From NCBI GenBank assembly GCA_034436295.1, contig DAOTVT010000071.1, positions 1,208 to 65,207 of the forward strand: a stretch of DNA of 64,000 bases, read 5' to 3'. Below, in pieces: positions 1,484-50,356 of the stretch. The translations under genes and the position numbers were made by a program. The DNA is from Anaerolineae bacterium. Lineage in GTDB: Bacteria > Chloroflexota > Anaerolineae > DTLA01. The notes below the pieces were generated by a model. That model searched no databases and had not been told where the DNA came from. It worked only from the letters and a program-made list of their open reading frames with translations. Each line of letters begins with the position of its first letter. Position 1 is the stretch's first letter.

Positions 1484-1828
1484 CTACCGTGTTTCCTGCC
1501 GCCGCTGGCAGTGCATGCACAAGGCCGCCTGCGGATGCGCCTCCAGGCGCGCCCACTCAATCTTTTCCCCACACCGCAGGCAGAGGCCGTACGTGCCCTG
1601 CTCAAAGCGGTTCAGCGCCGCCTCCACCTCTTCCAGATTGCGCCACAGACTCTGCAGCAAGGAAACATTCGCCGCCTGGTCAAAAACGTCCGTCGCGTCA
1701 TCTGCCGCGTGATTGCCATATCCGGCGGGAGTGCGTTCCATAACCGGATGCTGCGCAATCGCCGCTTTGAGCCGCTGCTGCTCTTTCAACAACATCGTGC
1801 GCAGTTGCTCGTAACTTCGGACTACCAT
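1484..1828 (-). CDS. DksA/TraR family C4-type zinc-finger regulator
   Basis: 114 aa with a C-terminal CLRCGEKI...CMHC four-cysteine zinc finger and an N-terminal coiled coil typical of DksA/TraR. Confidence 0.8.
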   Translation of the reverse strand: MVVRSYEQLRTMLLKEQQRLKAAIAQHPVMERTPAGYGNHAADDATDVFDQAANVSLLQSLWRNLEEVEAALNRFEQGTYGLCLRCGEKIEWARLEAHPQAALCMHCQRRQETR

Positions 1829-2117
1829 TGTCGTCTCCCCTGATTCTCAGGGCAGGCATCCTGCCTGACTGGCAGGCCCAGGGCCTTCCAGAGGTCGGTG
1901 CCCCCCGACTGGCACGCCTGCTGGCCCGCTTCAGCCGGCGGCCCCGACGTACCCGGCCCCGCAGGCGCAAGCCCCGACGGACGCGATTCAACCGGGCTTC
2001 GCGCCTCCGATAGCCTGGGACTAGGGTTGTTGCGTTGTTCCTGCATGGTTCGCTTCCGCGCGACTTCCCTCCTCTGGATGACCGCCCTTCCCTCTGTCGG
2101 TTGTCGTGTACAGCCTT

Positions 2118-5100
2118 CTACCCTTCTATCCTCAGCAACCCCAAGACCAGGGGTTCGCCGTCCAGGTTGTGCTCCTGCAGGTGGGCGCCCTGTGGGGCGT
2201 CGCCCTCTGCCAGTTCGTCGGCCAGCGTCTCCTGCCGGATGTAGTCGCCGAACTCCGCGAACACCGCCTGCAGCCCCGCGCCGCAGCGGTAGAAAACCCG
2301 AATGTGGTCCTCAATGCGGAAGCCGGCGTCCTTGCGCTGCGTCTGGATGCGGCGCACGACTTCTCGCGCCATTCCTTCGCGCACCAGCGCCTCGGTGAGG
2401 GCCGTGCTCACTGCCACCACCAGGCCGTTCTCCTCGGCGACCGAGAAGCCTTCCTTGCTGTGGACGCGCACCTCCACTTCCTCAGGGAGGAGTTCCACCT
2501 CCTCGCCGTCCACCGAGACGCGCACGCTTCTGCCCGCCTGCAATTCGCGGGCCAGGTGGGCCGCAGGCAGCGCCGCGACCGCCGCGCGGAGTTTCGGGAA
2601 CCGCGCACCGTGCTTCTTGCCCAACACGTTGGGAAGCAGGCCGATCTCGTAGCGCACCAGGTCGTCGGCCTGGGCCACGACCTCCATCGCCTTGACGTTC
2701 AGTTCGTCGGTGATGACCGCCGCCATCCGCTCCACGATGGCCCGTGCGTCGTCATCTCTGGGCTTCACGATGACCTTCGCCAGCGGCTGGCGCACCTTGA
2801 GGTTCGCGGCGTTGCGGGCCGCGTGCCCCAGGCTCACCACCTGCCGCACCAATTGTACATCGGCCACCAGGGTGTTGTCAATTGCGGCGCGGTCGGCGAC
2901 GGGGAAGTCGCACAGGTGCACGCTCAACGGCGCGTTGGGGTCCACGCTCCGCACCAGGTTCTGGTACATCTCCTCGGACAGGAACGGCGTGAAGGGGGCC
3001 ATCAACTTGGCCAGGGTTACCAGGCACTCGTAGAGCGTGAGGTAGGCCGCGACCTTGTCCGTGTCCTCGCCGCTCTTCCAGAATCGGCGGCGGCTACGGC
3101 GGACGTACCAGTTGCTCAGCCCGTCCACGAATGCCTCAATGGCGCGGGTGGCGCCCGTTACGTCGTATGCGTTCAGGGACGCATCCACTCGCTCCACGAG
3201 CAGGTTCAACTCGGCCAGCACCCAGCGGTCCAGTTCCGACCGCTTGTCCAGCGGCATGGTGTGCTCCATCGGGTTGAAGCGGTCAATGCGTGCGTAGGTT
3301 ACGAAGAACGAGTAGGTGTTCCACACCGTGAGCAGGAAGCGGCGCAGGGTCTCGCGCACCAGTTCATTGCCGAAGCGGCGCGGATACCAGGGGGCCGCCA
3401 CCGAGTAGGTGTACCAGCGCAGCGCGTCGGCCCCTTGCTCGTTGAGGATGGGCCACGGGTCCACCACGTTGCCCACGTGCTTGCTCATCTTGGCGCCCTT
3501 CTCGTCGGTGCCGAACTCGGTAACCAGGCAGTTCTTGAACGCCGGGCTGTTGAACAACATGGTGGCCACGGCGTGGAGCGTGTAGAACCAGCCGCGGGTC
3601 TGGTCAATGGCCTCGCAAATGAAGTCGGCCGGGAACTGCTCCTTGAAGATATCCTGGTTCTCAAACGGGTAGTGCCATTGGGCGACGGGCATGGAGCCGG
3701 AGTCAAACCAGGCGTCGGCGACCTCGGGGATGCGGCGCATTTGCCCGCCGCACTCGGGGCACTTGAGGACGACGGCGTCCACGAACGGGCGGTGCGGGTC
3801 CAGGTCCGACAGGTCGCGCCCGGCCATCTGCCCCAACTCGGCCAGACTGCCGACGCAGATGCGGTGGCCGCAGTCCTGGCATTCCCAGATGGGCAGGGGC
3901 GTGCCCCAATAGCGCTCGCGGCCCAGCGCCCAGTCCACATTGGTCTCCAGCCAGTTGCCGAAGCGCCCGTGCTTGATGTGCTCGGGGTACCAGTTGATCT
4001 GCTCGTTGGTCGCCAGCATCTGGTCGCGGACCTTGGTGGTCTCAATGTACCAGGTGGTCTTGGCGTAGTAGAGCAGGGGCTGGTGGCAGCGCCAGCAGAA
4101 GGGATACGAGTGCTCGTACTTGGCCGCGCGGTACAGCAGGCCGCGGGTCTTCAGGTCGTCGGTGATGAGCGGGTCGGCGTCCTTGACGAACATGCCGCGC
4201 CAGGGCGTTACCTCGTTCACGAAGCGCCCGCGCAGGTCCACCGTCATGAGCACGGGCAGGTTGTACTCCTTGCCCACGTCCAGGTCGTCGGCCCCGAAGG
4301 CCGGCGCGATGTGGACGATGCCTGTGCCCTCCTCGGTGTTCACGAAGTCCGCGCCCACCACGTAGGCGTAGTCCTTGTCCACGGGCAGGAAGGTGTAGAG
4401 GGGGCGGTAGTGCTTGCCGATGAGTTCCTTCGCCTTCACCGAACGCAGGACCTGATACTCGCCGCGCAGGGCGTATTCCAGCAGCGCCTTGGCGAGGATG
4501 AGTTTGTCGTCGCCCTGCTGCACCAGGACGTACTCCACATGCGGGTGCACCGCCAACGCCACGTTCCCAGGGAGCGTCCACGGCGTCGTCGTCCACACCA
4601 GGAAATACGTCCCCGGCTCATCGCGCAGGGGGAACTTGACGAATACCGACGGGTCCTGCACGTCGCGGTAGCCCTGGGAGACCTCGTGGCTGGAGAGGGA
4701 CGTGCCGCAGCGAGCGCAGTAGGGCACGACCTTGTACCCCTGGTAGATGAGCCCCTTGTCCCAGAGTTGCTTGAGAATCCACCAGAGCGATTCCACATAC
4801 TCGGTCTTGTAGGTGATGTAGGCGTTCTCCAGGTCAATCCAGAACGCGATGCGCTCCGTCAGTTGCTCCCACTCTTTCACGTAGCGCCACACGCTCTCGC
4901 GGCACTTCTCGTTGAACGCCTCCACGCCATAGGCTTCAATCTCGGCCTTGCTGTTGATCCTGAGTTCCTTCTCCACTTCCAGTTCAACGGGAAGGCCCTG
5001 GGTGTCCCATCCGCCCTTGCGCAGGACGTAGTATCCCTTCATGGTGCGGTAGCGCGGGAAGAGGTCCTTGAGGACGCGCGGCAGGACGTGCCCGGCGTGC

Positions 5101-5698: not shown

Positions 5699-6030
5699 AA
5701 GCAGGCGGGGACCCCCTCACCCTGGCCCTCTCGCCGCAAGGCGGGGCGAGGGGATTGGGCCCCTCACCCTAGCCCTCTCCCCGCGAGCGGGGCGAGGGGA
5801 AGTATTCCCAAGGTGCAACGCACTTCCGGAAGTGCGTTGCACCTTGGCGTGCCCCCGGCTTCGGCGGCTGTGGAAAGCCGCCCTACGTGTCTGCATCCAT
5901 TCTGCCTTCGCGTGGATTCGTGTTATTCGTGGATAGCGGTTAGCGAGCGTAGGGCAGGTTTCCATACCTGCCCCCGGCTTCGGCGGCTGTGGAAAGCCGC
6001 CCTACGTGTCTGCGGACAGCGGGTCTCGGA
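5690..6030. repeat. composite cluster of dispersed MITE-like repeats (families A,B,C,D)
   Basis: Family A is two units of CCCCTCACCCTNGCCCTCTCCCCGCNAGCGGGGCGAGGGGA. Family B is the perfect 40-bp palindrome CCAAGGTGCAACGCACTTCCGGAAGTGCGTTGCACCTTGG. Family C is two copies of CCCCCGGCTTCGGCGGCTGTGGAAAGCCGCCCTACGTGTCTGC. Family D is ATTCGTGTTATTCGTGGATAGCGGTTAGCGAGCGTAGGGCAGGTTTCCATACCTG. The same units recur elsewhere in the window. Confidence 0.85.
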
Positions 6031-34627: not shown

Positions 34628-34690
34628 CACGAATCCACACGAATGGGGAATAGTAGTAGGGCGGCTTTCCATAGCCGCCGACGGCAAGAG
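34605..34690. repeat. dispersed repeat units (families D and C, inverted orientation)
   Basis: GCTAACCGCTATCCACGAATAACACGAATCCACACGAATGG and GGGCGGCTTTCCATAGCCGCC. Confidence 0.7.
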
Positions 34691-38754: not shown

Positions 38755-39306
38755 TCACGCCTCGGCGACCACCGCGTTCATCTTCTCGTAGCACTCGCCG
38801 CAGATGCCGTGGGAAATGGCCGGCAGGCTGCGTCGTTGGAAAAGCCGCAGCCGTTGGATGGCTTCCTCTACCTCCACCCATTCGCCGCCCACGAAGAACT
38901 TCTTGCACCAGCCGCATGAGCGCAGCAATTCGTCGGACCGGTCGGCCTGGGGGTCTAGCAACAAAGGCGCTGGCCGCTCCTGTTCCAGGAGCGTGCGGGT
39001 GCGGAACTCCACCGCGCCGCCTTTCTGGCCGACGATGATCATCTCCAGAAACCGCCGTCGCCAGGGGGCGTCGCAGCGGAAGGTGAATTGGATGACGCGG
39101 CCCGCACGGGCCTTTTGCAAGAGCAGCCGATAGATTTCCTGCGTGGACAGGTCCGTGATGAAGTCCCAAAGTGGGCGATGGAGAACCTGTTCGGAAACGA
39201 CGCTCTCCCCGCCATTGGCTGTGGCGAACTGGTCCCAGTCTTCGCTCACGAAGACAATCTCGTCGTTCTCGTTGACCCTGTAGACGAGGTCTGGCGTTTC
39301 GGACAT
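38755..39306 (-). CDS. PAS-like sensor protein with C-terminal CxxC...SHGICxxC zinc-ribbon-like module
   Basis: GGGGAGGGG RBS; N-terminal PAS-like fold; C-terminus CGWCKK...EWVEVEEA...SHGICGEC shares its motif with the 44849..45484 product. Confidence 0.6.
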   Translation of the reverse strand: MSETPDLVYRVNENDEIVFVSEDWDQFATANGGESVVSEQVLHRPLWDFITDLSTQEIYRLLLQKARAGRVIQFTFRCDAPWRRRFLEMIIVGQKGGAVEFRTRTLLEQERPAPLLLDPQADRSDELLRSCGWCKKFFVGGEWVEVEEAIQRLRLFQRRSLPAISHGICGECYEKMNAVVAEA

Positions 39307-39514
39307 TGTCCCCTCCCCAAATGGAAATGCGCCACGGCCGGGCGGAAACGCATGACCATACCGCGTGGCTAGCATGTGCATTATACGTGTCGCCGACGCC
39401 CCCGGCAAGAAGGCTGGCCGCAAGGTTCGGGTTCGTCTTGCATCGGCGACGCGAGGTGCGACGCACCTTCCACAGTGCGCCGCACCTATCACGCGCACAG
39501 CGCCAGAGCGCCCG

Positions 39515-41659: not shown

Positions 41660-42065
41660 CCCGCCGCGTATGGATTCGGTTCCGCCTCGTGTTGGCGTGC
41701 CCCCTGGCTTCGGCGGCTACGGAAAGCCGCCCCACGTGTCTACTGTAACCGCGAATCCACGCGAATCCACGCGAATGGAGAACAGCCCCTATCCTCCATT
41801 CGTGTGAATTCGTGTTATTCGTGGATAGCGTTTAGCGAGCGTGGGGCGGGTTCCCATACGTGCCCCCTTCGTCCGGCGGCTATGGAGAGCCGCCCTACGT
41901 GTCTACTGTAACCGCGAATCCACGCGAATCCACGCGAATGGAGAACAGCCCCTATTCGTGTGAATTCGTGTTATTCGTGGATAGCGTTTAGCGAGCGTGG
42001 GGCGGGTTCCCATACGTGCCCCCTTCGTCCGGCGGCTACGGAAAGCCGCCCTACGTGTTTGGGTC
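41660..42065. repeat. tandemly duplicated composite repeat (families E, C, D; two ~185-bp copies)
   Basis: CCCCCTGGCTTCGGCGGCTACGGAAAGCCGCCCCACGTGTCTACTGTAACCGCGAATCCACGCGAATCCACGCGAATGGAGAACAGCCCCTAT...ATTCGTGTTATTCGTGGATAGCGTTTAGCGAGCGTGGGGCGGGTTCCCATACGTGCC is repeated twice. Confidence 0.85.
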
Positions 42066-42132
42066 AAGCCCGCTTGACACGCCGCCCCGCCGCCCGTACA
42101 ATGCCGGCGAAGAATCCCGTCGGAGAGGCGCA

Positions 42133-42945
42133 GTGAAATCCCCGCGAACGCATATCCTCACCGTGGCGGCGTGGCTGGCGCTGGGCGCGGCCCTGGCGCC
42201 CTGGGTCGGCCCCTTCGGCCGAACGATGCAGGGCGCGCTCGGCAAGGTCTCGTGGGACTTCACCCTGTGGGCCACGCCGGTGTGGGCGCTGGCGGTGGCG
42301 GCGTGCGCGGCGCTGGGCACCCATGAGGTCATCGCGGCCCACCCCAAGGCGCGCCGCGGCGAGTTGAGCCACACCGCCCACTACTGGCCCACCCCTGCCC
42401 TGGTGGCGGCTGCTGCGGTCGTCCATGCGGCGCGGCTGCGGTCGGGGGCGGCTGTGGAGGGGCTGGCCGTCGGCGTCGGCGCGGCCGTGGCCGGCGTCCT
42501 GTGGCTGGAGTGGGCCACGGTGGACGCCGCCGAGCGGCCTTATGCCCGCGCGCGCTGGGCGCTGAACGTGGCCGACTACGCGGCGGCACTGGCGGCGTTC
42601 ACGGCGGCGCTCACCGGCAACCCGACGCCCGCGCAGGCCGGCGCGTTGTGCGGGGTGGCGGCGGGACTCGGGACGCTGGACCTGCTGCGACTGCCCGACC
42701 GCACGCCCGACTCGGTGGCTCTCTACGCGCCCCTCGTGGGGGCCATCGTTGGGGGCGGGGCGAGTCGGATGGCGCAAGGGGGGCTTTCCCCGACGGGCGC
42801 GGCGCTCATCTTGCTCCTCGTGGCCTATGCGCTCACGGGCATCCTCCAGCACCACCTTCGCCAGCAGTTGACATGGCGGGTGCGGCTGGAGTACTTCGGG
42901 CTTCTCGTGCTGGGGACGCTGGCGCTGCTGCGCTGGGTGGCGTGA
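42133..42945 (+). CDS. hypothetical polytopic membrane protein
   Basis: ~270 aa, Ala/Leu-rich with ~8 predicted TM segments; GTG start inferred. Confidence 0.5.
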   Translation: MKSPRTHILTVAAWLALGAALAPWVGPFGRTMQGALGKVSWDFTLWATPVWALAVAACAALGTHEVIAAHPKARRGELSHTAHYWPTPALVAAAAVVHAARLRSGAAVEGLAVGVGAAVAGVLWLEWATVDAAERPYARARWALNVADYAAALAAFTAALTGNPTPAQAGALCGVAAGLGTLDLLRLPDRTPDSVALYAPLVGAIVGGGASRMAQGGLSPTGAALILLLVAYALTGILQHHLRQQLTWRVRLEYFGLLVLGTLALLRWVA

Positions 42946-42951
42946 ACGGCG

Positions 42952-43983
42952 CTACGGCAACCGCCGCGCCGCCCCGATGTTGGCGCGCAGAAACGGCTCC
43001 TCGGCGCGCAGGTCGCCGTAGCACACCTCGGCGGCGGCCTTGCACCCGCCCTGGCATGTGTCGCGCAGGGGGCACGGCTGGCAGAACGCCGGAGTCGCCG
43101 CCGCGAAGGCTGCCATCGCCTCGCCGCCGATGATGTCCGCGAAAGGGCGCTCCCACACATTACCCAGCACCGTCGCGCTGTGGTTGCACGGGCGGACGTG
43201 GCCGGCGCGGTCCAGGGTGTAGTAGGCGCGCTCCGTGCCGGCAGCGCAGAAGCCGAAGTTCAGGTGGGGATAGGCATCCAGGGCCACCAGGCACGGCTGG
43301 ATGGGGATGGAGACCGCCACCGAGAGGCCCAATTCGGCGGCCAGGGCATCGGCGACGGCGAGGGCATCCCGCACCTGCTCCAGCGTGGGGAGCAGGTCCA
43401 GGTGGGCCGCGCCGCGCCCGCCTGGGTTGAAGCGGTTGAACTGCACGCCCCGCGCGCCAAAGGCGAAAGCCAGCCGTAGGGTATCGCGCAGGTCGGCGAT
43501 GTTGAGGCGGGTGGCAACGAAGGCGACGGCGGCGGCGCCGCGATGGGCGCGGATGTGGGCCAGAGCGGCCAGCGCGGCGTCAAAAGCGCCCGCAGCGCCG
43601 CACAGGGCGTCGTGCGTCTCGCGGCGATGGCTGAGCAGGGGCACGGCGAACAGGCTCACGCCGCGCTGGATGAGTTCGGCGGCGCGGGCGTCCGTCAGGC
43701 GGTGGCCGTTGGTGATGACGTTGACGCGCACGCCCCGCCGCGCAAGGAAGCCCACCGTTTCTTCCAGGTCCTCGCACAGGAGCGGCTCGCCGCCCGTGAG
43801 GGTTACGTGGCCGCAGTCCACCTGGGCCAGCACATGGGCCAGGAGCGCGGTCGCGTCGGGTTGGGGTCGAGCGGGAGCGGGCCGCGCGCCTGGATGCCGC
43901 CACGGGTTGTAGCAATACAGGCACGCATGGTCGCAGTCCTGGGTCATTTCCAGGATAAGGGTCTGAAGGCGGGGTCTGCCCAT
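42952..43983 (-). CDS. radical SAM/SPASM-domain maturase
   Basis: N-terminal CDHACLYCYNPW (CxxxCxxC) radical-SAM cluster motif. C-terminal auxiliary cluster cysteines (CAAGTERAYY...PCNH...CQPCPLRDTCQGGCKAAA) typical of the SPASM/twitch domain. Confidence 0.85.
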   Translation of the reverse strand: MGRPRLQTLILEMTQDCDHACLYCYNPWRHPGARPAPARPQPDATALLAHVLAQVDCGHVTLTGGEPLLCEDLEETVGFLARRGVRVNVITNGHRLTDARAAELIQRGVSLFAVPLLSHRRETHDALCGAAGAFDAALAALAHIRAHRGAAAVAFVATRLNIADLRDTLRLAFAFGARGVQFNRFNPGGRGAAHLDLLPTLEQVRDALAVADALAAELGLSVAVSIPIQPCLVALDAYPHLNFGFCAAGTERAYYTLDRAGHVRPCNHSATVLGNVWERPFADIIGGEAMAAFAAATPAFCQPCPLRDTCQGGCKAAAEVCYGDLRAEEPFLRANIGAARRLP

Positions 43984-43988
43984 GCGCG

Positions 43989-44633
43989 CTACTTCTTGCC
44001 CAGCAGAATGTCCACCAGCAGGCTCGCCGCATCTACGGCTTCGGGCGGGATGTCCAGTTGGAGTTCTTGCAGCGGGGGGTACTGGCCGCTTTCGCCCGCA
44101 CTCTGGCGCAGGGCTTCAATGAGCGCCTTCTCGTCCTCGTCGGTCAGCGACAGGATGGCCATGTCGCGCTGGATGGAGGTCTGGGCCAGGGCGACGGTGG
44201 CGGGGTCAATGGCGCTGCGCTGGGCCATCTCGGCCAGGATGTCGGCCTGGTGGGCCAGGTCGCTGGCGCCCATGATGCGATACTGCGGGTAGGGCGCGGG
44301 GACGTAGCACGTGATGGGGGCGTTGGCGCGCCAGACGTGCTGGGCCGCTGCCTGGAAGGCCACGTGGATGTCCTCGGCCTGGGCCGCGCCGATAAGCCCC
44401 GCGCGCACCAGATTATCCAGCGCGGCCAGGTGGTCGGCGACGAGTTGATCGCGGGTTTTCTGGCCGCGATCCAGGTCCTTGGCGTCCTGGGCCAGGCGGT
44501 CCAGGCCGTACCAGGCGTCGCGGACGCGGTCCCAGTCGTCTTTCTGGGCGGCGGGCGGTCTGCACCGCGACAGCACAACCGATGCCAGGGCGATGCCCAG
44601 CCCCTCCAGGAATTTCCGTCGGTTCCACTGCAT
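43989..44633 (-). CDS. Tat-signal protein of unknown function, co-operonic with radical SAM/SPASM gene
   Basis: AAGGGGAGG RBS; N-terminus MQWNRRKFLEGLGIALASVVLS carries a twin-arginine motif; 214 aa mature helical protein; its stop is 5 nt upstream of the SPASM gene start. Confidence 0.6.
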   Translation of the reverse strand: MQWNRRKFLEGLGIALASVVLSRCRPPAAQKDDWDRVRDAWYGLDRLAQDAKDLDRGQKTRDQLVADHLAALDNLVRAGLIGAAQAEDIHVAFQAAAQHVWRANAPITCYVPAPYPQYRIMGASDLAHQADILAEMAQRSAIDPATVALAQTSIQRDMAILSLTDEDEKALIEALRQSAGESGQYPPLQELQLDIPPEAVDAASLLVDILLGKK

Positions 44634-44792
44634 GTTCGTCCTCCCCTTGCGGGCCTTTGCGCGGAGCGCGCATGATCGCCGCATGTGGAATGATAGCCAA
44701 TTTCGCGCCGCCTGTCCAATGGCGGTGCGCGAGGCATCGGCTGTACGCGGTTGCCAACACAAAATGAAACCGAGGCGAATGAAAACGAATAT

Positions 44793-44848: not shown

Positions 44849-45484
44849 TTGTCCATGGAACAAAACCAACTCCAGGTGAATGACTATGTCCGCACCGTTC
44901 TGGATGCCATTCCGGCGGCAGTGTTCGTCGTGGACAGGCGCGTGCAGATCTTGGATTGCAACGCGGCCGGTCTGGAAATGCTGGGCACGTCGGGGAAGGA
45001 CAGCCTTCCCAAACTCTGCGGGAACGCGTTGCAGTGCGTCCACGCGCTGGAAAGTGCGGGGGGATGCGGTACGAGTCCGTTCTGCGCCAACTGCGCCCTG
45101 CGCAATGCGGTCAGGGAAGCCATGGAGGGCGACCGCGTGATTCGGCGCAAGACCGAGATGCTGCTGGTGCGACAGGGCCAGCCGCAGGAGTTTCACCTGC
45201 TCATCAGCACGGCGCCGTTTGAGTACAAGGGGCGGCGGCTCGTCCTGGCGACGTTGGAGGACATCACCGAACTGGAAGCGTTGCGCCGCATTGTGCCCAT
45301 CTGCGCCAACTGCAAGCGCGTGCGCACCGATGAGGAGTACTGGGAGAGTGTGGAAGCCTACGTCGCCAAGCACTCCAACCTGGATTTCAGCCACGGCATT
45401 TGCCCCGACTGCGCCAGGATGCTGTATCCCGACCTGTTCCTCGGCGAGGACGATCGGCCGCCGGATCCTGCCCATTCGCAATAG
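44849..45484 (+). CDS. PAS-domain sensor protein with C-terminal CxxC...SHGICxxC zinc-ribbon-like module
   Basis: PAS fold (LDAIPAAVFVVDRRVQILDCNAA...) followed by ICANCKRVRTDEEYWESVEAYVAKHSNLDFSHGICPDCARML. Paralog of 38755..39306. Confidence 0.65.
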   Translation: MSMEQNQLQVNDYVRTVLDAIPAAVFVVDRRVQILDCNAAGLEMLGTSGKDSLPKLCGNALQCVHALESAGGCGTSPFCANCALRNAVREAMEGDRVIRRKTEMLLVRQGQPQEFHLLISTAPFEYKGRRLVLATLEDITELEALRRIVPICANCKRVRTDEEYWESVEAYVAKHSNLDFSHGICPDCARMLYPDLFLGEDDRPPDPAHSQ

Positions 45485-45514: not shown

Positions 45515-45870
45515 GAGGGCTGGCAGTAGGGCGGCTCTCCGTAGCCGCCGAAACCGGGGGCACGCCCAGGTGCGACGCACTTCCCAAAGTGCGTCGCACC
45601 TGGGCGCCAACACAAGACGGAGCCGAATCCTGCCGCCCCGTATGCTTTTGACAGCCGCCATAGCCGGGTGGCAGGTACGGAAACCTGCCCTACACTCGCT
45701 AACCGCTATCCACGAATAACACGAATCCACACGAATGGAGAATAGACCCCCAACGGTCTCCGAGGCCCGTTGTCCGCAGACACGTAGGGCGGCTCTCCGT
45801 AGCCGCCGGACGAAGGGGGCAGGTATGGAAACCTGCCCTACACTCTGCTGCCGGACTTGCGCCAATTTCC
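45515..45870. repeat. composite dispersed-repeat cluster (families C, B, E, D, C)
   Basis: GGGCGGCTCTCCGTAGCCGCC; palindrome CCAGGTGCGACGCACTTCCCAAAGTGCGTCGCACCTGG; ACACAAGACGGAGCCGAATCC; CGCTAACCGCTATCCACGAATAACACGAATCCACACGAATGG. Confidence 0.85.
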
Positions 45871-45972: not shown

Positions 45973-46965
45973 ATGACCGAAGGCCCATCGCCAACGGTTT
46001 CTGTCATCATTCCGGCCCGCAACGCGGCGGCCACGCTGCGTGCCTGCCTGGACGCCTTGCGCGGCCAGGTGGGAGGCCCGCCGGACTTTGAGGTCATCGT
46101 GGTGGACGATGGCTCCACCGACGACACGGCCGCCATCGCCGAGGCGGCAGGGGCGCGGGTGGAGCGCACGGCGCACGGGGGCGCTGCCGCCGCCCGCAAT
46201 CGCGGGGTGGCCGTGGCGCGCGGGTCGCTGCTGCTGTTCACCGACGCGGACTGCGAGCCCACCCCCAACTGGATGGCGCGCATGGTCGCGCCCTTTGCGG
46301 ATGCGTCGGTCGCGGGGGCGCGGGGCGTGTACCGCACGCGCCAACGGTCGCTCGTGGCGCGCTTCGTCCAACTGGAGTACGAGGACAAATATCGGCTGCT
46401 GAAGCCGCTTCAGGACATTGACTTTGTGGACACCTACTCGGCCGCCTACCGCCGCGACGTGTTCGTGCAGGGCGGCGGGTTTGACCCCTCCGTGCGGTTC
46501 GTGGAGGATCAGGATTTCTCGTTCCGCCTGGCCAATCGGGGATACCGCCTGGTGTTCGTTCCCGATGCCATCGTCTATCACCGCCACGCCGACTCGCTGC
46601 GCGCCTATGCGCGGAAGAAGTATCACATCGGGTTCTGGAAGGCGCGGATTGTACAGACCCACCCCAACAAACTCGCCCGCGACACCCACACGCCGCCATC
46701 CCAGCGCGCCCAGGTGGCGCTGTTCTACCTGGCGTTGGCGTTGTGCGTGCCTGCGGCGGCGGGGCTGGTGTCTTTCTGGTGGCCTGGGGCGGCGGCCCTG
46801 GCGCTGACGGCCACGACCCTGCCGTTCGCGTGGTGGGCGGCTCGCAAGGACTTCCCCGTGGCTGTGGCGTCGCCGGCGCTCCTCTGGGTGCGCACGGCGG
46901 CGCTGGGCGTGGGGCTGGCCGTGGGCATGGCGCGATTCCTGCCAGGGAGGCTGCGGCGGAGATGA
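45973..46965 (+). CDS. glycosyltransferase family 2
   Basis: VSVIIPARNAA...VVDDGSTDDT...FTDADC GT2 motifs with a C-terminal TM segment. Confidence 0.85.
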   Translation: MTEGPSPTVSVIIPARNAAATLRACLDALRGQVGGPPDFEVIVVDDGSTDDTAAIAEAAGARVERTAHGGAAAARNRGVAVARGSLLLFTDADCEPTPNWMARMVAPFADASVAGARGVYRTRQRSLVARFVQLEYEDKYRLLKPLQDIDFVDTYSAAYRRDVFVQGGGFDPSVRFVEDQDFSFRLANRGYRLVFVPDAIVYHRHADSLRAYARKKYHIGFWKARIVQTHPNKLARDTHTPPSQRAQVALFYLALALCVPAAAGLVSFWWPGAAALALTATTLPFAWWAARKDFPVAVASPALLWVRTAALGVGLAVGMARFLPGRLRRR

Positions 46966-48491
46966 GACGCGGCTCCGGCGGCCTATCCTCACCCCGTGGC
47001 GCGCGCGCGGCGGAGATGCTGGTCTTCGCGGCTCCGCTGGCCGTGTATGTGGCCACGCTGCCGGCGGGATTGACGTGGGCGCACGAGGGCGCCGACGGCG
47101 GAGACCTGGTCGCCGCGGCCCGCACGCTGGGCATTCCCCATCCGCCTGGGTATCCGCTGTACACGCTCCTGGCGCGGCTGTTCCTGCTGATGGGCTGGAG
47201 CACGCCTGCGCACCGCGTGGCGCTCCTGTCGGCGGTGGCGGGCGCGGGGGCGGCCTGGGCGCTGTTCCGGTTGTGCCTGGCGCTGGTCGGCCGGTCGCGT
47301 TGGCCGCTGGCCCTGTCGGCCTCGCTGATGTGGGCCTTCGCGCCCATTCCGTGGGGCCAGGCGGTGATCGCCGAGGTGTACGCCCTGGGTGCGCTGTTGG
47401 CCGTGGCGTTTCTGGCCGCGTTGCTCCATTGGCGCAACACGGCGAGCAGGAGAGCATGGCGGGCCGCGTGGCTGCTGTTCGGGTTGGGCATGGCCCACCA
47501 TCCGCTCATCGCCGCATGCCTGGTTCCCGCGGGCGTGTGGGCGTGGCAGCAACGCCGCCGCGCCGACAGGCGAAGTTGGGGCGAGGCGGTCGGGCTGGTG
47601 GCGCTGGGCCTGGCCTTCTACATCTACCTCCCGCTGCGGGCGGCGGCGTCTCCGCCCATCAACTGGGGCGAGCCGCGCACCCTGGCGGGGTTCTGGTGGG
47701 TGGTGTCGGCCGCGCCGTATCGGCCGTATGTGTTCGGCCTGCCGCTCGGGGAGTGGCCGTCCCGCCTGGGCGCGTGGGCCGCGCTCCTGCTGGGCCAGTT
47801 CAAGGTGTGGGGCGTCGCGCTGGGGCTTTGGGGGGCGCTGGCCCTTCACGAGCGGGACAGGGCCGCGTCGTGGGGGCTGCTGGGTCTGTTCGGCCTCATC
47901 ACGGTGTACGCCATCGGGTACGATACGACGGACTCCTTTGTGTATCTGCTGCCGGCGCTGGCCGTGTTTGCCGCCTGGATCGCGACGGGCCTGGGGGACA
48001 TCGCGGATCGCGTCGCGGCGCGAAGGGCGGGGCTGACCCGCGCGGCGCAGGTGGGCCTCGTGGTCGCGCTGGTGGCGCTGCCTGCGCTCTCCCTCGGCAT
48101 GGACTGGGCGGCGTGCGACCTGCGCGGCGACCGCGAAGCCCAGGCGTATGTGGATGCGTCGCTGGCGGCGCTGCCCGCAGACGCCCTCGTCCTGGCCGAC
48201 GGCGACCGCCAGACCTTCGCCCTGTGGTACGCCCGCTGGGCGCTGGATGGCGCATTCCACGGCGAGGTTCTGTCCATCCCGCTGTTGCGGTTGGACTGGT
48301 ACCGGGCGCAGGTGCTGCGTCGCAACCCCCATCTGGTTCTGCCCGACGCGAACCTGCCCCAGGAAGCGTTCCTGGCCCAACTCATCGGCGGGAACGTGGA
48401 TGACCGCCCGATTTTCGTTACCGCGGAGTACCTTGCGCCTGGGGGCTGGAAGGTGGAGCCTGCCGGGCCTCTGTTGAGGGTGAGCCGATGA
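46963..48491 (+). CDS. DUF2723-family membrane protein (TMEM260-like putative glycosyltransferase)
   Basis: Multi-TM protein with the characteristic GIPHPPGYPLY motif; ATGA overlap with the upstream GT2. Confidence 0.75.
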
Positions 48492-50356
48492 ACGTTGACG
48501 CCACGCCGCGCCGTTTCTATCGCGCGCCGCTGTTCTGGATCGTCGCGGCCCTGCTGGCGGGGCTGCTGGTTGCCTTTGGGCCGCGGGTCGCGCGCCTGCC
48601 GGGACTGATTCGCCAGGCGCGGGCCGAGGCGGCCTACTGGAGCGCCGTGCGTAGCGGCGGGCTTCGGGCGTTGAGCCGTGCCGGCGCTGCCGACGAACTG
48701 GGGGCGCATCTGGACGCCGCCCGCCGCCTGGTGGCCTCGGCGCGCCGCGATTGGGGGTTCGCCGTGGAGGCGGCGGCGTGGTTCGGCTGGGTTCCCGGCA
48801 TCGGGGGCGACCTGGCGGCGCTGCCCCACCTGGCGAACGCGGCCCAGAACGCGCTGGACGGCGGCGCGCTCCTGTACGGTGAGGTGAAGCTGGCGGTGGC
48901 GGCGCTGCCCGATGGCGCGGGGGCGATGCTGGCCGCGCTGGCGACGCGCACGCCGGGCGACCCGCAGGCCCTGCGGCAGGCGGAAGAGGCGCTGCGGCGG
49001 GCGTCGGAGGCGTGGGGCAGGGTGGACACGCGCCGCTTGTCGCCCAGGCTGGCGCGGTTCGTCCCGCTGGTGAATCGGGCGCTCCCCGTTTTGGCCGCCG
49101 CGCCCGACCTGCTGCGGGCGGCGCCGGAATTGCTGGGGGCCGACGGCCCGCGCCGGTATCTCATCCTGGCGCAGAATAGCGATGAAATCCGCGCCACGGG
49201 TGGGTTCATCAGCGGCGTGGGCATCGTGGAGGTCAATCGCGGCGAGATCACGTCCGTTACCTTCGCCGACAGTTACTCGGTGATGGATTTGACCAAGCCG
49301 CATCCCATCCCGCCCGTCGCGCTGGAGACCCACATGTGGGCGCAGATTCTCCTGCTGCGCGACGCCAACTGGTGGGCCGACTTCCCCACGTCGGCGCGCA
49401 AGGCCTGGGAACTGTACGAGCAGGACACCGGCAAGAAGGTGCACGGGGTTGTCGCCATAGACACGCCCGCGCTGCAACTGCTGGTCGCGGCGGCAGACCC
49501 CATCCGCCTGGAAGAGTACAACGACACCATCACCGCCGACAACCTGCTGGAGCGCATCCAGCACTACTGGGCGTCGCCGGTGGGCGGGCCTGACATCGCC
49601 AGCAACGACCCGCAATGGTGGAAACTCCGCAAGAACTTCATGGGCGTCCTGGCGAAGTCGGTCATAGAGCGCCTGATGAAGCACACGGGCGACTTGGACA
49701 TGGCGGAAGTGGCGCAGACGACGCTGCGCCTGTTGAACGAGCGCCACCTGCTGCTGTTCCTGCCGCCTGTGCAGGACGCGCTCCATCGGCAGAAGTGGGA
49801 TGGCGCCATCGTGCCGGCGCAGGGCGATTACCTGTTCGTGGTGGACAGCAACGTGGGGTTCAACAAGGTGAACCCCATGATCCGCCAGAGCATCACGTAC
49901 ACGGTCAACCTGGCCGACGCCACGGCGCTGTTGCAGATCGGCTACGCCCACGGGTCGCAGGCCCGCCTGGACGTGTGCGTGCACGAATCGCGCTACGGGG
50001 ACACATACCAGGACATGATGGATCGCTGCTACTGGGACTATGTGCGGGTGTTCGCGCCGGCGGGGGCCGAGTTGCTGGCCCGCGAGGGGCTGGAGGACGG
50101 CGATCTGGCCGAATCGGAGGCGGGCCTGGCGGTGTGGGACGGGCTGCTGGTGCTGAAGCCGGGCGAGGCGCAGGAAGTTACGTTCCGCTATCGGTTGCCG
50201 GCGTCGGTGGCGCAGAGCGCGTACCGCCTGTACGTGCAGAAGCAGCCGGGGACGTGGGGCATCCCGCTGCGGGTCGTCATCAGGGGTGGGGGCGGCCAGG
50301 TGCGCGAGTTCCAGACCGACCTGGCCGAGGATCGGGAGTTCGTCGTCGGCCCGTAG
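48488..50356 (+). CDS. DUF4012-domain protein
   Basis: N-terminal TM anchor and a large extracytoplasmic domain with the DANWWADFP signature; ATGA overlap with the upstream gene. Confidence 0.7.
   Translation: MNVDATPRRFYRAPLFWIVAALLAGLLVAFGPRVARLPGLIRQARAEAAYWSAVRSGGLRALSRAGAADELGAHLDAARRLVASARRDWGFAVEAAAWFGWVPGIGGDLAALPHLANAAQNALDGGALLYGEVKLAVAALPDGAGAMLAALATRTPGDPQALRQAEEALRRASEAWGRVDTRRLSPRLARFVPLVNRALPVLAAAPDLLRAAPELLGADGPRRYLILAQNSDEIRATGGFISGVGIVEVNRGEITSVTFADSYSVMDLTKPHPIPPVALETHMWAQILLLRDANWWADFPTSARKAWELYEQDTGKKVHGVVAIDTPALQLLVAAADPIRLEEYNDTITADNLLERIQHYWASPVGGPDIASNDPQWWKLRKNFMGVLAKSVIERLMKHTGDLDMAEVAQTTLRLLNERHLLLFLPPVQDALHRQKWDGAIVPAQGDYLFVVDSNVGFNKVNPMIRQSITYTVNLADATALLQIGYAHGSQARLDVCVHESRYGDTYQDMMDRCYWDYVRVFAPAGAELLAREGLEDGDLAESEAGLAVWDGLLVLKPGEAQEVTFRYRLPASVAQSAYRLYVQKQPGTWGIPLRVVIRGGGGQVREFQTDLAEDREFVVGP

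Follow-up and report, generated by a model that had tools for sequence, protein, structure and literature searches.

What does a radical S-adenosylmethionine (radical SAM)/SPASM enzyme act on when its gene directly follows one for a signal-bearing protein that belongs to no named family? The question is raised by two adjacent genes in a 64,000-nucleotide stretch of contig DAOTVT010000071.1 from an Anaerolineae bacterium (Chloroflexota), referred to here as the window. The answer that we favor, and that we regard as probable if well short of assured, is a self-contained two-gene protein-maturation module, in which the enzyme would modify Cys and/or Tyr at a short sequon of its partner in the cytoplasm, with export of the partner by the twin-arginine translocation (Tat) system to follow. 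The initial annotation of the window had put forward an undescribed protein-maturation system at this position, and the conserved pairing of the genes and the lack of a known family both support that suggestion. To the earlier claim of pairing we add the sequon, together with tandem precursors and co-occurrence counts. The genes and the expression signals around them are the following.

43989..44633, minus strand: gene for the signal-bearing protein (proposed substrate; 214 aa), an open reading frame with ATG at 44633 and stop TAG at 43991..43989
42952..43983, minus strand: radical SAM/SPASM gene (proposed maturase; 343 aa), an open reading frame with ATG at 43983
43984..43988, minus strand: spacer of exactly 5 nt between the signal-bearing stop and the radical SAM start, read from the sequence
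44640..44646, minus strand: Shine-Dalgarno sequence GGGGAGG, 6 nt 5' of ATG 44633, read from the sequence
44690..44718, minus strand: promoter-like site TGGACA-17-TATCAT 5' of the signal-bearing gene, 10/12 in a consensus scan, a consensus match only

When the minus-strand open reading frames were read again, the coordinates, 214-aa length, and 5-nt gap given in the initial annotation proved exact to the base. The upstream frame would span 43989..44762 if a TTG start were taken. We prefer the start at ATG 44633, which yields a 214-aa protein beginning MQWNRRKFLEGLG, because the Shine-Dalgarno sequence lies 6 nt before it. GC content at third codon positions is 0.875 in the signal-bearing gene and in the radical SAM gene, the expected coding signature for both (genome GC is ~65%).

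The evidence that the two genes belong together comes from other genomes. Loci were gathered from two sides, from signal-bearing homologues and from radical SAM orthologues at ~60% identity, and one or more signal-bearing genes lie directly 5' of the radical SAM orthologue in 18 of 18 genome and assembly loci (tblastn check). The partner at these orthologues is a protein of ~215-250 aa with no Pfam match, a twin-arginine N terminus, and the motif HVWR-N-P-TCY, and the gap between the genes ranges from a 4-nt overlap to ~24 nt. A metagenome scan with a 19-sequence alignment added 33 loci, of which 25 extend 250 nt or more 3' of the last paralogue; in 24 of these the radical SAM gene is found downstream. 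In L023/L024, a branch that has diverged to 30% identity, three tandem paralogues are followed by a radical SAM gene 53% identical to that of the window. Whether the Tat protein is always paired with the SPASM enzyme, the question set by the initial annotation, can thus be answered for the Chloroflexota clade: pairing is near-universal, over 30-87% sequence divergence and with the flanks shuffled. Literature and full-text searches returned no description of this gene pair.

The arrangement within the loci is also informative. Between one and four tandem signal-bearing paralogues stand 5' of a single radical SAM gene, as is usual, by analogy, where one maturase serves several precursors. Diverged paralogues in arrays of two to four before one radical SAM gene were located as follows.

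L014, 4280-6346
L013, 4246-5648
L023, 3315-5741
L037, L045, and L053

Within the arrays, every paralogue bears a separate twin-arginine signal and a separate variant of the sequon, HVQRQQATCYFALPPEY and HIWMLNSGVTCYKPSPGPVY being two examples, and fused two-domain signal-bearing proteins were also observed (P0169, P0185, and P0216). The flanking genes, in contrast to the pair, vary by lineage (tRNA synthetase, NUDIX, kinase, PIN, flavin adenine dinucleotide oxidase, sialidase-like, M23 peptidase, and others), and no protease, transporter, PqqD or RiPP recognition element (RRE) protein, or other enzyme recurs in the ~45 loci examined (RiPP, a peptide made by the ribosome and then modified post-translationally). 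Because the flanking genes differ while the pair persists, we take the unit of conservation to be one to four signal-bearing genes plus one radical SAM gene. The downstream synteny with DUF5656, HARE-HTH, and Hsp20 genes is limited to the closest relatives (79% identity).

Two further observations concern individual loci. At L040 (~2100-2500) and L043 (3709-4349), a RelE/HigB-like toxin and a helix-turn-helix antitoxin are inserted between the signal-bearing and radical SAM genes, and the cassette evidently tolerates loss of tight coupling. At L023, a twin-arginine sulfatase (1561-3171) lies two genes upstream of the triple-paralogue/radical SAM cassette, a probably coincidental neighbor that bears on the idea of anSME-like chemistry.

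If the signal-bearing protein is the substrate, where would it be modified? Two features of its central region are of interest.

44304..44312, minus strand: Thr108-Cys109-Tyr110, core of the sequon [V/I/P]-T-C-Y-x-P-x-P and proposed modification site, invariant in alignment A1
44262..44321, minus strand: loop between helices 4 and 5 (residues 105-124) that carries the sequon and is predicted to be disordered from the AlphaFold2 predicted local distance difference test (pLDDT)

One peptide that holds the sequon is RANAPITCYVPAPYPQY, and in a six-frame translation of the window Thr108-Cys109-Tyr110 is the sole TCY, with no other TCY-bearing candidate substrate. Over 150 representatives of the family, only eight positions reach 90% conservation, and Cys109 and Tyr110 are two of them. 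At least one Cys-Tyr pair is present in 141 of these 150, most of the nine others being fragments or frameshifted, and Tyr follows 196 of the 511 Cys residues of the set, compared with a Tyr background of 2.3%. The sequon is also repeated. Two to four Cys-Tyr pairs are held by 39 of the 119 members with a recognizable RR motif, so that about a third of homologues carry one to three additional copies. All 40 extra sites fall after the signal and before the first helix, in the Pro/Thr-rich linker, and their logo, [V/P/I]-T-C-Y-x-P-x-P-P, is as at the main site; examples are PTCYTVVPPT, VTCYVPPPPP, PTCYAPMPP, and PTPTCYTVVPPT. One member, P0197, has lost the main-site Cys and retains the linker TCY. 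A three-residue core that stays conserved while the disordered linker around it evolves quickly marks, judged from sequence, a site recognized by an enzyme as opposed to a structural or ligand pocket.

The protein that carries this sequon has no Pfam family, and the NCBIfam scan gave no family either, its sole match being a sub-threshold TAT signal model. A sequence profile search of the PDB returned chance matches alone (E 0.03 or worse) and no solved structure, fold matches are to generic helical bundles only, and the NCBI and JGI label is "hypothetical protein." A word-indexed search found 47 close clusters, none with a name other than "hypothetical" and each from Anaerolineae or from Chloroflexota metagenome-assembled genomes or metagenomes; 474 representatives at 50% identity, 275 of them with E ≤ 1e-10, came from an exhaustive profile search. 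The initial annotation had described a Tat protein of unknown function that has no catalytic domain and is not a sulfatase. The searches bear this out, as both the C/S-x-P-x-R motif and a sulfatase domain are absent from the 214-aa protein, and no known family with a characterized SPASM partner was found in Pfam, NCBIfam, the PDB, or the literature. The N terminus is the feature that gives the protein its name here.

44562..44633, minus strand: signal region (residues 1-24) with N-R-R-K-F-L, a Gly/Ala/Ser-rich hydrophobic stretch, a basic residue, and Cys24 (alignment A1)

In the window, this region reads N-R-R-K-F-L-E, a Gly/Ala/Ser-rich hydrophobic region, Arg23, and a lipobox-like L-S-R-C that ends at Cys24. 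For comparison, Tat signals are characterized by S/T-R-R-x-F-L-K, moderate hydrophobicity in the h-region, and a basic c-region. Arg5 and Arg6 are near-invariant and Cys24 is invariant in alignment A1, and the typical N terminus of the family is M-x-x-T-R-R-E-F-[MIL]-[RK]-x-x-G-[VI]-x-L-A-S-L, after which come a basic residue and Cys24. An RR-x-[FLIVM] motif lies inside the first 45 residues of 119 of the 150 representatives. The residue at position -1 of Cys24 is mostly Arg in the core clade (LSRC, LTRC, LARC), canonical forms (LSGC, LPGC, VAGC, AAGC) are in the minority, and some remote members have no Cys at the position of Cys24. This residue probably marks a point of lipidation or cleavage, and membrane anchoring is uncertain.

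Beyond the signal, the family alignment shows invariant His68 and His99 in a helical hairpin formed by the first helices, followed by the invariant stretch H-V-W-R-A-N-A-P-I-T-C-Y. The C-terminal half is helical, with conserved Leu126, Gln129, Leu133, Arg156, Asp157, Ala202, and Leu206. The AlphaFold2 model of the 214-aa protein is all-helical with a mean pLDDT of 66.9. Values fall below 50 at residues 107-124 (mean ~33 at residues 111-120) and reach 86-95 in the adjoining helical hairpin.

The proposed maturase is easier to place in a superfamily than in a subfamily. Its diagnostic cysteines are found in two regions.

43912..43935, minus strand: C17-x3-C21-x2-C24 (CDHACLYC), which ligates the SAM-cleaving [4Fe-4S] cluster, read from the sequence and invariant in 44 orthologues
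43021..43293, minus strand: SPASM region (residues 231-321) with C231, C246-x14-G-x4-C266, C301-x2-C304-x5-C310-x3-C314, and C321

In Pfam, the 343-aa enzyme matches Radical_SAM (PF04055) at 6e-19, in keeping with its CX3CX2C motif, which in this superfamily sits in a partial TIM-barrel core, and SPASM (PF13186) over residues 252-305 at 25.0 bits against a cut-off of 21.5. The seven-cysteine pattern of SPASM domains (PF13186/TIGR04085), CX9-15GX4C ... CX2CX5CX3C ... C, by which these domains bind two auxiliary [4Fe-4S] clusters, is present along with the upstream Cys231, and all eight C-terminal cysteines (Cys231, Cys246, Cys266, Cys301, Cys304, Cys310, Cys314, and Cys321) are invariant in alignment A3 of the 44 orthologues. 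Assignment as a radical SAM enzyme with a C-terminal SPASM domain, as in the initial annotation, is secured by the above-threshold Pfam matches and this invariance. By analogy with anSME, the eight cysteines predict two auxiliary clusters that are fully Cys-ligated. Because the radical SAM core begins at residue 12 in the Pfam match, the enzyme has no N-terminal RRE domain.

No characterized subfamily claims the enzyme. Its NCBIfam list is flat (PqqE 95 bits, AhbD 90, GeoRSP 86, NirJ2 83, MftC 80) against equivalog cut-offs of 265-650. PqqE (TIGR02109) scores 95.2 bits against 381, and no pqq genes occur in any neighborhood examined; MftC (TIGR03962), which goes with the Val-Tyr-ending peptide MftA and the partner MftB, scores 79.6 bits against 265, with no mftA- or mftB-like genes nearby; AhbC, AhbD, and NirJ, from the siroheme-dependent heme and heme d1 pathways, score 78-90 bits against cut-offs of 500-650, with no ahb or nir genes in the neighborhoods. 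There is no anSME in the 25 best NCBIfam matches, and the partner has neither C/S-x-P/A-x-R nor a sulfatase domain. Profile searches of the PDB align PqqE (6c8v) over the full length (9.4e-17) and anSME through the SPASM region only (enzyme residues 251-319 to anSME residues 258-332, 1.5e-8). The nearest folds are mostly SPASM/Twitch enzymes that modify peptides or proteins (SkfB, SuiB, anSME, ChlB, TigE, CteB, and PqqE), and comparable scores are reached by BlsE and viperin, whose substrates are small molecules. The sequence comparisons mark the enzyme as a genuine SPASM radical SAM protein that lies outside all characterized subfamilies. It has hundreds of close relatives, likewise in Chloroflexota.

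How might such a pair work? We suggest that the two genes are co-transcribed and closely coupled via the 5-nt spacer. The enzyme, cytoplasmic and RRE-less, with a single SAM cluster and two auxiliary clusters predicted to be ligated by Cys throughout, would bind its newly made partner at the linear sequon [V/I/P]-T-C-Y-x-P-x-P, exposed and proline-flanked in a flexible loop, and the extra linker sequons of many orthologues would be recognized likewise. Oxidative modification of Cys and/or Tyr through the 5'-deoxyadenosyl radical could follow, with the auxiliary clusters taking the electron away. Our best guess at the chemistry is a small thioether or carbon-carbon crosslink, or an anSME-like oxidation of the Cys side chain. 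The folded, modified protein would then leave through Tat, which is the route for folded-protein export and suits the substrate of an oxygen-sensitive cytoplasmic enzyme. Because Tat tolerates folded, crosslinked cargo, no dedicated exporter or protease would be needed. Once outside, the protein may remain attached to the membrane's outer face through an N terminus that is lipidated at Cys24 or left uncleaved there, and the modified Cys-Tyr together with conserved His68, His99, Trp101, and Arg102 may form the functional site, either a protein-derived cofactor or a metal site. More tentatively, and as a possibility that we would not call probable, the modification may be of a previously unknown kind, a radical SAM crosslink or protein-derived cofactor at TCY, installed at one to four sites per protein in a Tat-exported, membrane-anchored helical family of Chloroflexota.

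Several observations weigh against this reading or parts of it. The twin-arginine signal of the initial annotation holds as a motif, N-R-R-K-F-L being present, and falls short as a model match, TIGR01409 scoring 13.9 bits against a cut-off of 16.7, so that it is the motif on which Tat export is predicted. Position -1 of Cys24 is occupied by Arg, which departs from the typical lipobox [LVI]-[ASTVI]-[GAS]-C, the C-terminal half of the AlphaFold2 model is of low confidence, and the chemistry is not readable from sequence. The enzyme is about equidistant (80-95 bits) from peptide-modifying enzymes (PqqE, MftC, and GeoRSP) and from tetrapyrrole SPASM enzymes (AhbD and NirJ). One core-clade locus, L050, has no downstream radical SAM gene, and remote homologues from other phyla (29-32% identity) keep the Cys-Tyr with no adjacent radical SAM gene. 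None was found within the 4-6 kb flank of L019 and L025/L026 or directly downstream on the short contig of L020/L021. Given these homologues, the Cys-Tyr motif may have an intrinsic role that is independent of radical SAM chemistry. Their positions, on contigs that are not Chloroflexota-like (54% and 69-73% GC), are listed here.

L019, 4001-4666 (54% GC)
L025, 6001-7404 (69% GC; fused tandem protein)
L020, 31-855

The remote genomes may carry the enzyme at another locus, or their Cys-Tyr motif may function without modification. The neighbors of these homologues encode secreted Cys-rich or CAP-domain proteins.

The near-equal distance of the enzyme from peptide and tetrapyrrole enzymes gives room for the first alternative, that its substrate is a small molecule, like the tetrapyrroles of AhbC, AhbD, and NirJ or the sugars of BlsE and BtrN. 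In that case the signal-bearing protein would be an apoprotein that binds the cofactor, possibly covalently via Cys109, before Tat export. We consider this unlikely. No other cofactor-biosynthesis gene is conserved nearby, and the cut-offs for the tetrapyrrole enzymes are all missed by a factor of >5. A substrate relationship would better account for several tandem paralogues standing before one enzyme gene, and TCY repeats in disordered Pro/Thr linkers fit an enzyme recognition site and not a cofactor pocket.

The second alternative is that adjacency reflects a shared operon only, with Cys-Tyr as an intrinsic functional site, for instance one that ligates a metal or crosslinks by self-processing. 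Of the risks left to the module that we propose, this is the chief one. The remote homologues (L019, L020, and L025) and L050 are as it would predict, and so is the tolerance of toxin-antitoxin insertions between the genes at L040 and L043. Set against these points are the near-universal pairing across 30-87% divergence in shuffled flanks, the tight spacing or overlap of start and stop codons, and the fact that no alternative substrate is encoded nearby. Long-term coupling of an exported protein to an unrelated cytoplasmic Fe-S enzyme would also be unusual, and on balance we regard mere adjacency as quite unlikely.

Equally hard to sustain is anSME-type chemistry proper, in which the sequon Cys would become formylglycine and the family would be a new kind of non-sulfatase formylglycine protein. 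The SPASM region of the enzyme does align to that of anSME, but this region is all that the profile search finds, and anSME is absent from the 25 best NCBIfam matches. The sequon T-C-Y-x-P-x-P is not C/S-x-P/A-x-R, the protein has no sulfatase fold, and a catalytic aldehyde would have no obvious use at multiple linker sites.

Very unlikely, finally, is a classical secreted RiPP, in which a small modified peptide around TCY would be excised from the long 214-aa precursor and released as a natural product: tandem precursor copies 5' of a radical SAM/SPASM gene, a short and conserved core motif, and nearest folds that are mostly RiPP maturases are as expected for one, but no protease or exporter is conserved in the ~45 loci, the enzyme has no RRE domain and no leader-dependent RiPP set of RRE, protease, or transporter genes accompanies it, and the 214-aa protein, described from the start as too large for known RiPP precursors, is conserved over its whole length including the C-terminal helices, with confident helices flanking the site, as for a folded, functional protein.

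The surroundings of the pair were considered as well. The initial annotation had placed the operon between two islands of a dispersed repeat, which is true but incidental.

41696-42058 and 45526-45845: repeat islands of ~160-nt units, inverted relative to each other, with arms 80-91% complementary

The islands bracket four genes, for DUF5656, the radical SAM enzyme, the signal-bearing protein, and a PAS protein. A diagnostic 25-mer of the repeat is also found at 5862-5886, 5981-6005, and 34656-34680, which brings the total to eight copies over 64 kb where chance predicts none. Because it recurs at these positions, we consider the repeat a genome-wide intergenic element and not a feature of the operon. 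Its units are intergenic, dispersed, and ~100-160 nt long, with a hairpin-prone core GTAGGGCGGCT(C/T)TCC(G/A)TAGCCGCCG, and close relatives with shared synteny do not have them. A mobile cassette bounded by inverted repeats was considered and rejected: the repeat is dispersed over the window, relatives keep the DUF5656/HARE-HTH/Hsp20 synteny without it, and there is no transposase gene. An Rfam scan of the region gave sub-threshold hairpin matches only. The right-hand island also contains, ~80 nt downstream of the PAS gene, a perfect inverted repeat (45563-45606) whose 20-bp arms enclose a 4-nt loop. Rfam gives only sub-threshold microRNA-like matches for it, and it may serve as a terminator or belong to the repeat element itself.

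Among the neighboring genes, the proteins encoded at 44849-45484 (plus strand) and 38755-39498 (minus strand) have in common a C-terminal Cys-rich module, C-x2-C-K ... SHGIC-x2-C. The former has a PAS domain N-terminal to the module and the latter has no Pfam match; from its sequence, the module looks like an uncharacterized four-Cys, zinc-ribbon-like output or sensor domain. The DUF5656 gene (42016-42945, plus strand) is convergent with the radical SAM gene and syntenic only in relatives at ~79% identity. The annotated GTG start of its open reading frame falls inside a repeat island, and a strong promoter-like site at 42074-42102 suggests that the true start is further downstream. On the other side, an envelope glycosylation cluster (45973-50356, plus strand) encodes a GT2 glycosyltransferase, a TMEM260-like protein O-mannosyltransferase, and DUF4012. 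A functional link of the pair to the PAS, DUF5656, or glycosyltransferase neighbors was rejected, as these are conserved only in the closest relatives.

Why would such a module matter? New peptide crosslink chemistry comes mainly from radical SAM/SPASM enzymes. To our knowledge, nearly all characterized cases act on short leader-bearing peptides, and enzymes that modify proteins (anSME and QhpD) are few. If the proposal is correct, the pair would be the first multi-site, sequon-directed radical SAM system in which Tat replaces leader peptide, protease, and exporter, and it would bring new chemistry on adjacent Cys-Tyr residues. With ~470 clusters at 50% identity, a clean and repeatable sequon, no accessory genes, and a built-in putative Tat signal, the family offers a directly testable two-gene system and possibly a portable Cys-Tyr tagging motif. 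It would also give a function to a conserved hypothetical pair in the Anaerolineae, which are abundant but poorly studied.

Among known systems, the logic of the cassette appears closest to that of anSME and its sulfatases. Both would combine a minimal radical SAM/SPASM enzyme, lacking an RRE and carrying two fully Cys-ligated auxiliary clusters (predicted for the cassette), with cytoplasmic action on a short linear Cys sequon in a full-length, later-exported protein, and neither involves a protease or transporter. The proposed substrate of the cassette differs in being all-helical and ~190 aa with no sulfatase fold, and its T-C-Y-x-P-x-P sequon can be repeated in the linker. QhpD is similar in that this radical SAM/SPASM enzyme places Cys thioether crosslinks in a periplasm-bound subunit, QhpC (the gamma subunit of quinohemoprotein amine dehydrogenase), as part of a protein-derived cofactor site. 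The cassette, however, has no QhpA, QhpB, QhpE, or QhpF genes nearby, its proposed substrate is unrelated, larger, and equipped with its own twin-arginine signal instead of a dedicated ATP-binding cassette exporter, and the QhpD model is not among the top NCBIfam matches of its enzyme.

PqqE, which acts on PqqA with PqqD, is the best sequence match of the enzyme, and its chemistry involves Tyr. The cassette differs in having no pqqA, pqqB, pqqC, or pqqD, no E-x-x-x-Y motif, and, as its proposed substrate, a 214-aa protein with a predicted export signal in place of a ~23-aa peptide. The sactipeptide and ranthipeptide maturases (SkfB, CteB, and PapB) are further removed in design, as they carry an RRE or act on leader-bearing peptides of 30-60 aa. 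Auxiliary cluster I of CteB has an open site for a substrate Cys, whereas the eight invariant cysteines of the cassette enzyme suggest full ligation of the auxiliary clusters.

Outside the radical SAM enzymes, the bufferins and oxazolins (MNIO) offer a parallel on the substrate side. Their precursors bear Cys motifs and a Sec signal that replaces the leader peptide, and they are modified in the cytoplasm before export by housekeeping machinery; some are lipoproteins, some are long or duplicated, and stand-alone precursor genes occur (PMC12452194). Those systems pair an MNIO enzyme and a DUF2063 partner with a Sec-type signal, whereas the cassette pairs a radical SAM/SPASM enzyme with a putative Tat-type signal in Chloroflexota and has no partner or RRE protein. 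The two-gene module proposed here would be a radical SAM counterpart to the signal peptide-bearing MNIO substrates.

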